Source of the DNA: an uncultured delta proteobacterium
Lineage (GTDB): Bacteria; Desulfobacterota; Syntrophorhabdia; Syntrophorhabdales; WCHB1-27
Assembly (NCBI GenBank): GCA_963810935.1
Contig: CAWEPK010000001.1
Span: 64,001 to 128,000 of the forward strand
Length of the DNA stretch: 64,000 bases
Direction: 5' to 3'
Positions 60,457-64,000 of this stretch are shown here, one piece after another (within the stretch, counting starts at the first letter, position 1; each line of letters opens with the position of its first letter). The translations under genes were made by a program, and so were the position numbers. The notes beneath the pieces are model-generated. The model worked only from the letters and a program-made list of their open reading frames with translations, searched no databases and was not told the origin of the DNA.

Positions 60457-61316
60457 TTTGCGACCCTCCTCTTCACCCAGAAATTTGCGAGAAGGTTCAG
60501 GCTCATGATGATCACGAGGAGGACGACGCCGGTGGAGAAGAGGGACTCCCTGTGGTCTCCCGTTGCATATGCCAGCTCGAGGGCGATATTGCTCGTGAGG
60601 GTGCGCAGCGGGTCGGTAAGGCTCGTGGGTATCTTGAGGGCGTTGCCGGCGACCATGATAACTGCCATCGTTTCCCCGACTGCCCGTCCCATGCCGAGTA
60701 TGAAGCTTGCGAGGATGCCGGAGCGCGCGGCCGGCAGCACGATCCTGTAAACCGTCTGCCATTTCGTCGCTCCCATGGCGAAGGAGCCCTCCCGGAAAGC
60801 AGGCGGGACGGTCATGAGCGAGTCGAAGGAGATGCTCGTAATCGTGGGGAGTATCATGATCCCGAGGACTACCGAGGTGGAGAGTATCGAGAAACCGGAA
60901 CCTCCGAGGTATTCACGGATAAGCGGCACGATATAGATGACTCCCAGAAAGCCGTAGACGACCGAGGGTATGCCGGCGAGCAGCTCCAGAGACGGCTTCA
61001 GCACTATTTTTGTTTTCTTCCCGGCGTATTCCGAAAGGTAGACTGCGCACGCAAGGGCGAGGGGGGCGCCCACGATGAGCGCGCCGAAGGTGACCATGAA
61101 TGATGAGATGATCATGGGGAAAATGCCGAAGAACCCCTTGGTCGGCGCCCACTTCATGCCGAACACGATATTTCTGACCCCTACCTTATAAAAAAGCGGC
61201 AGCCCTTCCGTCAGGATGAAGAGGAAAATTATAAAAAGAAAAAGCAGGGACGAGAGGGCGAAGAGGATAAGCACGAGCCTGATGAAGTTTTCCTTGCCGA
61301 ACGCTTTCTTATTCAT
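60453..61316 (-). CDS. pstC: phosphate ABC transporter permease
   Basis: W.P....FGI.P, ELLAGIPSVVYG, GRAVGETMAVIMVAGN. Confidence 0.93.
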   Translation of the reverse strand: MNKKAFGKENFIRLVLILFALSSLLFLFIIFLFILTEGLPLFYKVGVRNIVFGMKWAPTKGFFGIFPMIISSFMVTFGALIVGAPLALACAVYLSEYAGKKTKIVLKPSLELLAGIPSVVYGFLGVIYIVPLIREYLGGSGFSILSTSVVLGIMILPTITSISFDSLMTVPPAFREGSFAMGATKWQTVYRIVLPAARSGILASFILGMGRAVGETMAVIMVAGNALKIPTSLTDPLRTLTSNIALELAYATGDHRESLFSTGVVLLVIIMSLNLLANFWVKRRVAK

Positions 61317-62124
61317 TAATCGGAATGAGACCTTCCTTTTTCAGTATCTGCTGCCCTTCTCTGGAAAGCACATAAGCCATAAAAAAACCCGCCGCCGCGC
61401 CGGGCTCTCCTTTTGTCAGGTAGAGGAACGGCCTGACGATGCGGTATTTCCCGCTCATTATATTGGCGGCCGTTGCGTCCACACGATCGACGGCGACAGC
61501 CTTCACCTTGCTGTCTAATACCCCCAAAGAGATATACCCGATGGCGTAGGGGTCGGTTGCGACGACCTCCTTGACCGAGCCGTTCGAGTCCTGCACCATC
61601 GTGCTGTCGTCGATGCCCGTCTTGCCCATCACCAGCTCTTCGAAAGCGCCCCGCGTGCCGGACCCTTCTTCCCTGGTCACGGTGTCTATGTTCCTGTCTA
61701 TCCAGCCCAGAGATTTCCAGTTTTTGAGCTTCCCGCTGTAAAGGTCCCTTATCTGCTCTAAGGTTATGTTCCTCATCGGGTTTGCCGGATTAACGACGAT
61801 GGCTATCCCGTCGTGGCATATGACCGTTTGCTTCAGAATCAGCTCGTCGCCTTTCAGCTCCCTGGAAGACATGCCGATACCCACGGTTCCGTTGACGCAG
61901 GCCTGGATGCCTGCCGACGAGCCCCCGCCCTGTACGTTGACCGTTATGCGCGGGTGCTCGATCTTGAAGTGCTCGGCCAGTTTTTCGGTGAAAGGCATGA
62001 CTGACGTCGAGCCTGCTACAGTGACCGTGCTGCGGGCTTTTGAGGCGCCCTCCGCCTGGCCGTTGCAGGCGAGCAGACAGGGCACGAGTAAGAGAAGAAG
62101 CAGACTGCCGAACGCAATTCTCAT
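61309..62124 (-). CDS. pstS: phosphate ABC transporter substrate-binding lipoprotein
   Basis: LLAC lipobox, AGSTSV, GGGSSAG, MSSR, REEGSGTR. Confidence 0.92.
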   Translation of the reverse strand: MRIAFGSLLLLLLVPCLLACNGQAEGASKARSTVTVAGSTSVMPFTEKLAEHFKIEHPRITVNVQGGGSSAGIQACVNGTVGIGMSSRELKGDELILKQTVICHDGIAIVVNPANPMRNITLEQIRDLYSGKLKNWKSLGWIDRNIDTVTREEGSGTRGAFEELVMGKTGIDDSTMVQDSNGSVKEVVATDPYAIGYISLGVLDSKVKAVAVDRVDATAANIMSGKYRIVRPFLYLTKGEPGAAAGFFMAYVLSREGQQILKKEGLIPINE

Positions 62125-62809
62125 AAGGAGTCTGACGGGTTGCTTCAGGTGCCTGATTATCTTTCCGTCCACCAGGAATATGACCAGCTCGGCGATGTTG
62201 ACCGCGTGATCGGCCAGTCTTTCGAGATATTTGCCTATGAAGAGCAGCCTGGTGGCGCGTGAGATGGTCTTCAGGTCCTCTGACATATAGGTCAGCAGGC
62301 TCGCGGAAGACCTGCTCTGTAACATGGTCCACCTTCTCGTCGTCGCTCATGACCTTCGACGCCAGACGCGTGTCTTCCTTCACGAACGCCTCAAGCGATT
62401 CTTTCACCATAGTCTGGGCGATCTCGGCCACGTGAGGCAGGTCGATATACGGCTTCAACTGGGGCTCCAGGTTCAGGTCGAGCACCCGCTCGCAAACGTT
62501 GACCGCCATGTCCCCCATGCGCTCAAGGTCGTAGTTGATCTTTATAGCAGTCGTGATGAATCGAAGGTCCTTTGCCGCAGGCTGCCTGAGGGCGAGCAGC
62601 TTCAGGCAAAACTCCTCTATCTCGACCTCGTTCCTGTTTATGTCGTCATCGTCAGCGATTACGCGTCTCGCCAGCTCGGAGTCCCTGTTTTGCAGGGCAT
62701 CGATGGCATTGCGCACTGCCTTCTCGACAAGCGACCCTTCAAAAAGGATCTTTGCCTTCAGCTCCCTAAGCTCTTCATCGAAAAGCTTGTAAATATGTCC
62801 CTCGATCAA
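62121..62809 (-). CDS. phoU: phosphate signalling protein PhoU; +1 frameshift at about 62299 and probably another near 62138
   Basis: LALRQPAAKDLR, DLERMGD, then YLERLADHAVNIAE in the shifted frame. Confidence 0.9.
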
Positions 62810-62931
62810 TAGTTATGCCCTCCCCACCCAATTATAGAATGTTTTCGTACGGGACACAATAGCGCCGATAACCGGGCTGGGCTGACCCACCGATCTAATC
62901 GTGAAAAACCGTGCCGCCGTGTCCCTTTCTC

Positions 62932-62979
62932 TTTATGAGGGGGCGACCGGGTACCCGCTGCGGGTGTCCCGGTAATTGG
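62932..62979 (+). repeat. REP-like element, family B (short)
   Basis: tttatgagggggcgaccgggtacccgctgcgggtgtcccggtaattgg; both ends shared with the 37608 copy. Confidence 0.55.
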
Positions 62980-62993
62980 CCCGTTCACATCGC

Positions 62994-63022
62994 TTGACAC
63001 AACGGCGCCAATTTTGTATACA
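62994..63022 (+). promoter_or_regulatory. sigma70-type promoter
   Basis: TTGACA-N17-TATACA. Confidence 0.65.
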
Positions 63023-63064
63023 TATACGGCAACATTGAACGTGCAGACAGGAGAGGAGCTTAAA

Positions 63065-63121
63065 GTGACGACGCACAACTATTCCTTTTTCTTTTTTAGG
63101 AGGGCTCATCCTTGCCCCTGA
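63065..63121 (+). CDS. Phe-rich attenuator leader peptide MTTHNYSFFFFRRAHPCP
   Basis: AGGAGAGGAG RBS, GTG start, Tyr-Ser followed by four consecutive Phe codons. Confidence 0.75.
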   Translation: MTTHNYSFFFFRRAHPCP

Positions 63122-63177
63122 CGTGAGATAGCGACAGGAGCCGTGGGTGAGCCCTTTGCGCGCCCGCGGCTTTTTTG
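63101..63177 (+). promoter_or_regulatory. transcription attenuator (antiterminator/terminator)
   Basis: Antiterminator agggctcatcc (63101-63111) pairs with gggtgagccct (63145-63155); this excludes terminator gagccgtgggtg (63138-63149)/cgcccgcggctt (63161-63172) + U-tract. Confidence 0.75.
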
Positions 63178-63266
63178 TTTCGATTGAAAGGCCGTGGGAC
63201 CAAAAGTCTCACGGCCTTTCGGCTTGTTCGGGCACCATCAGACCATCGATAAGGAGGACGTTTTAA

Positions 63267-64000
63267 ATGGCCGTCAACATCCAGAAACCAATCCGGCTGA
63301 CCGGGCACCTTTTCCAGTTGGGGACCCCTGCCTTTCCCGTCTATCTCTCGATAGGGAAGGAAGCGATGCTCGTGGAGGGCGGAACAGGCGCCACGTTCCG
63401 GATGATCGTCGACCAAATCGATTATCTCGGGATCGACCCGGAAACGATCAAGTATATAGTCCTGACCCATTCCCACCCCGACCATATAGGCGCCGTCCCG
63501 CACCTTCAGCGCGCCTGGCCGCATATGCGGCTCCTCACGAGCGCGACGGGCAAAGAGGTGCTGGGCAAGACCACGCTCTTCAAGCAGTTCCAGATCGTAG
63601 ACCTGGGGATAGCGCAACTCATGAAGGCAAAGGGAGAGATAGACGCGCTGCCCGACCCGATAAAATATTACGCCTTCCAGGTAGACTCCGTCGTGAAAGA
63701 GGGAGACAGGATCGATTTGGGGGGAGGCATCGTATGGCGCGTTTACGAGACGCCCGGCCATTCACCCTGCCATATCTCGCTTTTTGAGGAGCGGGAGAAA
63801 ACCCTGGCCCTGGGGGACGCGGGCGGCTTTTACGTGCCCGGAAAGTGCGCCTTCTGGCCCAACTATTTCGAGTCCCTCGACAAGTACTGCGCGAGCCTCA
63901 GAAAGCTCGCCTCTCTTCCCGCCTGCCGGGCCGTCCTTAGCCACAACGGCATGATCGATGGCGACGTATCGGGTCACCTGCAAAAAGCCATGAAAGCGGC
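63267..64000 (+). CDS. MBL-fold metallo-hydrolase (truncated by window end)
   Basis: AAGGAGG RBS; THSHPDHIG, ETPGHS, GDA, SHNG motifs (absent from the ORF track because it has no stop in the window). Confidence 0.9.
   Translation, partial: MAVNIQKPIRLTGHLFQLGTPAFPVYLSIGKEAMLVEGGTGATFRMIVDQIDYLGIDPETIKYIVLTHSHPDHIGAVPHLQRAWPHMRLLTSATGKEVLGKTTLFKQFQIVDLGIAQLMKAKGEIDALPDPIKYYAFQVDSVVKEGDRIDLGGGIVWRVYETPGHSPCHISLFEEREKTLALGDAGGFYVPGKCAFWPNYFESLDKYCASLRKLASLPACRAVLSHNGMIDGDVSGHLQKAMKA

Follow-up and report, generated by a model that had tools for sequence, protein, structure and literature searches.

Leader peptides rich in phenylalanine codons are known from the enterobacterial attenuators pheL-pheA and pheM-pheST, and the hisL attenuator is known for a multi-step relay through six pairing segments. 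The leader analysed here, found near the end of a 64,000-nucleotide stretch of DNA from an uncultured delta proteobacterium (the window), shares with the pheL/pheM type the run of Phe codons in a short upstream ORF (uORF), the competition of an antiterminator with an intrinsic terminator and a predicted expression under starvation, and it resembles hisL in a chain of alternative pairings that would pass the position of the ribosome on to a distal terminator. It differs from the pheL/pheM type in its target, which is a lone uncharacterised hydrolase of the MBL fold, in an extra hairpin with its relay and in having no Rfam match, while the leader family occurs, unlike the enterobacterial attenuators, in Desulfobacterota-type and Chloroflexota-type anaerobes. 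Unlike those of hisL, its hairpins are near-copies of each other; U-rich tails stand on both of them in 13 of the 19 type-1 leaders, so that a single switch governs two terminators in tandem. According to the accessible part of one report, the same kind of Phe-codon uORF attenuator, uORFC-13-1, precedes aroF in Acholeplasma (PMC8632094). The openly searchable literature yielded no description of the leader or of the route proposed below, and older attenuation surveys in subscription journals may list the leader; the attenuation principle is known, and what is new here is the target gene, the lineage and the relay through tandem hairpins.

Two further systems bear on the function of the regulated gene. 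The enzyme is like PqsE (PDB 2q0i, 5hio) in its MBL fold of about 300 aa, its HxHxDH motif with distal His, Asp and His and its aromatic acyl-CoA context, and unlike PqsE in that the inspected neighbour clusters contain no pqs genes, in a Phe at the position of Glu182, in its Phe attenuation and in its GNAT fusions. The pathway in which we place it has the proposed intermediates and the dehydratase/activator family of the 3-aryllactate pathway of Clostridium sporogenes (FldABC/FldI), from which it would differ, as far as the available text of PMC5897657 describes that pathway, by running in reverse, by a thioesterase replacing the CoA-transferase and by an FAD/FeS dehydrogenase.

The features of the locus are collected in Table 1. 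The promoter, RBS, 18-aa ORF, antiterminator and terminator claimed in the earlier note were all found in the sequence, and hairpin 2 had been missed there. Within the leader ORF a Tyr codon starts at 63080, and four Phe codons span 63086-63097. The promoter is absent from the list of a consensus promoter scan; of 48 leaders, 46 have TTGAC[A/T/C] no more than 110 nt upstream, versus 5% of random 110-nt windows. Folding of the region 63025-63270 gave z = -3.64, with none of 200 shuffles equalling the real leader, and the comparison with Rfam gave no family match, only chance-level ones far below gathering scores. Because the next genes 3' of the MBL gene, of the HpaB/4-hydroxybutyryl-CoA-dehydratase and GntR families, lie on the opposite strand facing it, the gene is monocistronic. 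The co-regulated downstream genes that had been supposed past position 64000, with paaK or iorAB among them, thus do not follow the MBL gene in the window genome (G000).

Table 1. Features of the attenuated locus (window positions)
Feature	Position	Strand	Details
Sigma70-type promoter	62994..63022	+	-35 TTGACA 62994-62999, 17-nt spacer, -10-like TATACA 63017-63022; read from sequence
Leader RBS GGAGAGGAG	63050..63058	+	read from sequence
Leader ORF (MTTHNYSFFFFRRAHPCP)	63065..63121	+	GTG start, 18 codons
Antiterminator A:B	63099..63157	+	63099-63111 with 63145-63157; inner hairpin 63114-63141; constrained folding
Terminator 1, B:C	63139..63176	+	63139-63149 with 63161-63171; six T 63171-63176
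Relay helix C:D	63163..63198	+	63163-63175 with 63186-63198; blocks hairpin 2; constrained folding
Hairpin 2, D:E	63186..63220	+	15 bp; U-tail degenerate in window
MBL gene RBS	63251..63257	+	
MBL-fold PqsE-like hydrolase gene	63267..64000 in window	+	311 aa, monocistronic; ends at window-equivalent 64202, 202 nt past window

Several features around the locus were noted in passing. A repeat of about 90 nt stands in several tandem copies between iorB and a CoA ligase gene (G000:C10:27170-27570), and a related element occupies window positions 62928-62980, immediately 5' of the leader promoter. On the minus strand at 61309-62809 the phoU and pstS frames seem mutually shifted near 62320, with phoU extending into an unrelated tail, which suggests a frameshift or an assembly error. 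Two tandem PRK06836-like aminotransferase genes (G000:C1:135699-138060, minus strand) lie 7.5 kb downstream and are 46-49% identical to the aminotransferase of the L109 operon described below.

The MBL enzyme belongs to an unannotated family with 553 homologues at E <= 1e-30, whose hosts are named Syntrophorhabdaceae, Desulfatiglans or 'delta proteobacterium' and whose Atlas clusters are mainly from Thermodesulfobacteriota and Chloroflexota. Nine of the order's 61 genomes, counting G000, have orthologues, as do 18 of 401 in a phylum sample, and at least 377 MBL loci were confirmed on metagenome contigs, 79 of them being kept. In all eight carrier relatives and in two more genomes the orthologue has a Phe-rich leader in front of it. 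Among 108 loci in total, 12 had too little upstream DNA; in 57 of the 96 assessable ones (49 distinct peptides, near-duplicates counted) a Phe/Tyr-rich uORF is followed by a hairpin and U-run, as judged by a filter that included motifs drawn from these same loci, and 39 are without leader. The cores of the 57 leaders hold 215 Phe and 55 Tyr. When the whole of G000 was scanned with a filter for such leaders, a single Phe-run leader appeared, the one before the MBL gene, and a paralogue of 28% identity (L003) has no leader. A search of 18 loci, mostly leaderless or dehydratase-linked, found no T-box or riboswitch by Rfam.

Other upstream elements were seen as well. A conserved non-coding motif capable of forming a stem-loop, about 110 nt 5' of the MBL start, marks leaderless copies of a Chloroflexota-like clade (L109, L110, L112, L096, L097, L115, L116) and had no Rfam match in the loci searched; L083, L088 and L105 share a different upstream motif. 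Tandem MBL duplicates that include the upstream region occur at L110:4863-6918, L115 and L096/L097 and are possibly Phe- and Tyr-specific paralogues. At L168:3782 (minus strand) a short ORF with YYFRF, then a hairpin and T-run, precedes a fused glcD-glcF gene; it is missing from sister loci and may be a product of chance.

The predicted switch would work as follows. With plentiful Phe-tRNA the ribosome would reach the leader stop and cover segment A, B:C and D:E would form, and transcription would end; with Phe scarce it would stall on the Phe run, A would pair with B before C is synthesised, the freed C would capture D, and as no terminator forms the lone MBL gene would be transcribed. We folded 42 leaders of types 1 to 3 (L090 and 41 of the 57, the other 16 being ten of other type and six duplicates), taking away the part under the ribosome and truncating the transcript stepwise. 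A:B formed before C emerged in the stalled state of all 42; that it is missing when the ribosome stands at the leader stop is given by construction and is not an independent result. In 37 of the 42 the duplex was stronger than in shuffled leader ends, and its letters differ in a compensating manner between type 1 and type 2 (163/180 and 55/55 cells paired). Terminator 1 is paired in 236 of 257 cells across 26 leaders. In 16 of 19 type-1 and 7 of 8 type-2 leaders the relay helix C:D was present with a stalled ribosome and absent with one at the stop. Its cells are paired in 220 of 230 cases, yet covariation is weak: a single pair shows changes in both partners, and 12-13 of 500 shuffles score equally high. 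The complementarity of C and D also arises because D resembles B: the 5' arms of the two hairpins are near-identical, and therefore C, once released by A:B, can capture D. Hairpin 2 is a full terminator or the sole terminator in relatives, and as the U-tract stands on it alone in each of the 8 type-2 leaders, in L010 and at 6 of 9 loci with a stand-alone GNAT gene, the relay is there the one evident way in which the ribosome could act on a terminator.

When full transcripts were folded to equilibrium, with a crude automatic picking of helices, the switch was not reproduced. The median equilibrium probability of B:C under a mid-run stall was 0.59, 0.95 and 1.0 for types 1, 2 and 3 (0.41 for the window), and D:E beats C:D. 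Since the terminator often wins at equilibrium once C has been transcribed, and D:E over C:D, the switch must be kinetic. Conservation and computation together make it very probable that this is a ribosome-mediated attenuator turned on by starvation, and the features of the sequence point to transcription termination as the level at which the MBL gene would be controlled. The earlier note had read a pheL-type, starvation-on attenuator here and had named leader conservation and stem covariation as checks; the conserved leader, the folding under the ribosome footprint and the compensatory differences in A:B all agree with that reading.

Examination of the protein placed it closest to PqsE: PqsE variants fill the first twelve places among PDB sequences (E 1.6e-20 to 3.3e-19), ahead of another family at 1.8e-11. 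The HxHxDH binuclear site and the distal His, Asp and His are present and aligned to PqsE, and in 44 homologues H70, D72, H73, H165, D184 and H226 are invariant and H68 nearly so. None of the NCBIfam models among those shown passes its cut-off, and assignment to subclass B3 metallo-beta-lactamases was rejected (NF033105 at 74 bits versus a cut-off of 240). An alkylquinolone (pqsABCD) operon context was not found, the gene being monocistronic here and adjoined by other genes in the 108 loci. In a quick tree from which 16 duplicate or truncated loci were left out, the window protein falls in a clade of 58 rows (SH-aLRT 99) without any dehydratase-adjacent member, and attenuated copies occur in three of the five top-level clades, one of which has dehydratase-linked copies too. 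As the dehydratase-linked copies are in other clades, the function proposed below is transferred across 50-59% identity.

The commonest neighbours of the MBL gene in the 108 loci are HGD-D proteins (18), BadF/HgdC-type ATPases (15), aroF, enoyl-CoA hydratase and hotdog thioesterase genes (7 each) and FAD-linked D-2-hydroxyacid dehydrogenases (6). In 20 of the 108 the MBL gene is followed, in the same orientation, by an HGD-D gene, an activator gene or both; only one of these 20 has a leader. Locus L109 has the order aroF, MBL, HGD-D, activator, FAD oxidase, aminotransferase, although aroF may be transcribed separately because the MBL gene there has a TTGACA of its own. In L113 an MBL-HGD-D-HGD-D-activator array, encoding a two-subunit HGD-D enzyme, stands under a Tyr-rich leader. 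In G017 and G019 the attenuated MBL gene comes after the aro operon, and in G226 an MBL gene comes after aroF; in G029 leader and MBL gene come directly after iorAB, with pheA divergent, and in L060 iorAB is divergent from the MBL gene, so that a link to arylpyruvate metabolism is real. Directly 5' of the attenuated gene, pheA and aroC are fragmented in G017 (C3:1161910-1163674), as is aroC in G019 (C26:548331-549268), which suggests frameshifts from decay or sequencing error.

Placing these results into one scheme, a reversed 3-aryllactate pathway fits starvation induction, CoA-ester neighbours and thioesterase homology, and we give a probability of roughly one half to the reading that the enzyme is an aryllactyl-CoA thioesterase in Phe salvage. 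The enzyme would be an acyl-CoA thioesterase of the PqsE kind with (R)-3-aryllactyl-CoA as its specific substrate; activity, substrate and direction are inferred. Aryllactyl-CoA dehydration is reversible with the forward direction favoured, according to the available text of PMC5897657, and therefore the hydration of cinnamoyl-CoA needs a pull. The thioesterase would provide it, drawing a normally catabolic radical dehydratase in reverse from cinnamoyl-CoA (or 4-coumaroyl-CoA) to phenyllactyl-CoA, which it would hydrolyse to phenyllactate; an FAD/FeS D-2-hydroxyacid dehydrogenase would then give phenylpyruvate, and an aminotransferase Phe (or Tyr). Hydrolysis of phenyllactyl-CoA would be the irreversible, committing step, which would explain why the MBL gene alone is attenuated and the dehydratase operon is not. 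Unlinked dehydratase operons, which comprise HGD-D, activator and ligase genes, often with thiolase and an FAD dehydrogenase gene nearby, have no leader (none convincing in 21 regions); this is expected if they are catabolic and an attenuated thioesterase flips or short-circuits their flux. Against the scheme, a leader stands at only one of the 20 dehydratase-linked loci and is missing from 39 of the 96 assessable ones, the clade of the window protein is free of dehydratase-adjacent members, the HGD-D pair of G000 is nearest to BzdO and BzdN, two carriers have neither dehydratase type, and the phylum-sample carriers retain pheA and aroC.

The window genome is consistent with such a salvage role. 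G000 (93.5% complete, 7% contamination) has no detected aroF, aroA, aroC, pheA, tyrA or trpA, its PF00793 and PF00275 matches resembling KdsA and MurA, and the MBL gene would be its sole Phe-attenuated gene, serving an optional salvage. An aroD-aroE remnant lies mid-contig among unrelated genes (G000:C4:2030-3657), with an aroE frame of 325 aa versus 434 in relatives. Contig C10 carries iorA-iorB-ligase-glcD-glcF-ligase-HGD-D-HGD-D without a leader. The role in Phe supply suspected in the earlier note is thus strengthened both by this loss of the shikimate pathway and by the homologues that adjoin aro and pheA genes.

Across the phylum sample (400 genomes; G271, at 32% identity, was dropped from the carriers) one or other of the two linked dehydratase types occurs in 14 of 16 carriers versus 100 of 384 non-carriers (Fisher p 9e-7, kin not being independent); the carriers G182 and G327 (93% complete) lack both dehydratase types. 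Within the order such co-occurrence is uninformative because 51 of the 61 genomes have the dehydratase. None of the 16 phylum-sample carriers lacks pheA or aroC, 5 of the 9 carriers in the order lack both genes, and 28 of the 33 pheA-less genomes of the order have no MBL gene. A general replacement of the shikimate pathway by the MBL route is ruled out by the carriers that retain pheA and aroC and by the pheA-less genomes without MBL; because most carriers keep pheA, the route would be an optional salvage.

A wider version of the scheme, which we regard as doubtful, is that anaerobic aromatic degraders make Phe (and Tyr) without shikimate, from benzoyl-CoA (4-hydroxybenzoyl-CoA) and acetyl-CoA, with the double-terminator relay attenuator as the gate. 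Reverse beta-oxidation would lead from benzoyl-CoA and acetyl-CoA to cinnamoyl-CoA, the reversed radical dehydratase to aryllactyl-CoA, and the MBL thioesterase to aryllactate, followed by arylpyruvate and the amino acid. It fits because of the enzymes of beta-oxidation type found nearby, namely the enoyl-CoA hydratase-MBL-HGD-D-activator operons of L028, L029, L092 and L098 and the thiolase, hydratase and hydroxyacyl-CoA dehydrogenase genes beside the MBL gene in L054 and beside the HGD-D pair on contig C8 of G000.

Among the other explanations, an unlikely one is a catabolic brake, in which the starvation-induced thioesterase would undo the ligase step from phenyllactate to phenyllactyl-CoA and so spare Phe, without net synthesis, and a fused or co-regulated GNAT might acetylate the ligase. 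The catabolic look of the leaderless, unlinked dehydratase operons and the retention of pheA by most carriers agree with it. So does the GNAT partner: in 23 of the 108 loci the MBL protein carries a fused GNAT-like part some 530 aa long, and stand-alone GNAT-like genes of that length carry the type-2 relay leader at 6 of 9 loci (L179, L180, L183, L185, L186, L187). Within the order there are nine GNAT genomes and nine MBL genomes, with no overlap. The partner has no Pfam, NCBIfam or PDB assignment, only an Atlas lead to Acetyltransf_1, and a gene like an ADP-forming acyl-CoA ligase, read by eye, lies 3' of the stand-alone GNAT gene in three loci. Against a brake, however, the dehydratase itself is under the Tyr leader in L113, in L109 it stands together with aroF and an aminotransferase and without a ligase, no GNAT homologue was found in G000, and repression of the catabolic operon would be the simpler brake.

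Whether the enzyme acts on CoA esters at all also has to be considered. It is quite unlikely that it is instead an amidase or esterase freeing Phe, Tyr or an aryl acid from conjugates (the GNAT partner's product, for example), or that it regulates without catalysis, as PqsE does with RhlR. The similarity to PqsE is confined to residues 5-238 at E 1e-20, the position of PqsE Glu182 is occupied by an invariant Phe188, GNAT fusions are common, and PqsE itself hydrolyses 2-aminobenzoylacetyl-CoA, yet the consulted part of PMC12077149 describes this activity as dispensable for PQS in vivo. Overwhelmingly, though, the neighbours are CoA-ester enzymes, and the complete metal site is conserved, both of which speak for the thioesterase.

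The function that the earlier note had put under this regulation, phenylacetate reductive carboxylation, is not supported: the PaaK-like and iorA-like genes lie elsewhere in the genome, leaderless, and that route needs no hydrolase. The gene neighbourhoods favour the aryllactate pathway with its radical dehydratase. As an explanation of Phe supply, with the hydrolase releasing an aryl acid or recycling CoA, the phenylacetate route is very unlikely. The PaaK-like ligases (5 PF14535 matches) and IorAB of G000, which has five iorA-like genes, could yield phenylpyruvate from phenylacetate, and iorAB adjoins the MBL gene in G029 and L060; nevertheless the route consumes aryl-CoA, so that a thioesterase works against it, the scan of G000 found no paaK or ior gene with a Phe leader, and iorA is a neighbour in 2 of the 108 loci versus 18 for HGD-D. 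Very unlikely, too, is a partner resembling benzoyl-CoA reductase, at least for the two-subunit, two-ATPase type of G000, with mandelyl-CoA, benzoylacetyl-CoA or another aromatic as substrate of the thioesterase: the HGD-D pair is nearest to BzdO and BzdN (E 3e-24 and 7e-46), two unlike ATPases accompany this type and the PqsE substrate is a benzoylacetyl-CoA derivative, but the scores are far under the Bzd cut-offs (108 versus 449; 164 versus 454, no HGD-D subunit of either type passing a curated family cut-off), the single-subunit type, which occupies the same operon slot, has HadB as its nearest match (E 3e-55), and D-2-hydroxyacid dehydrogenases occur with both types.

The leader ties an unannotated enzyme family to the supply of Phe and Tyr. 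If the thioesterase scheme is true, a radical dehydratase known from amino-acid fermentation would also work biosynthetically, and the apparent aromatic-amino-acid auxotrophy of syntrophs without the shikimate pathway (28 of the 61 genomes of the order lack aroC) would need re-reading. With one terminator, two, or the distal one only, the leader family is a natural series for how attenuators gain relay steps.
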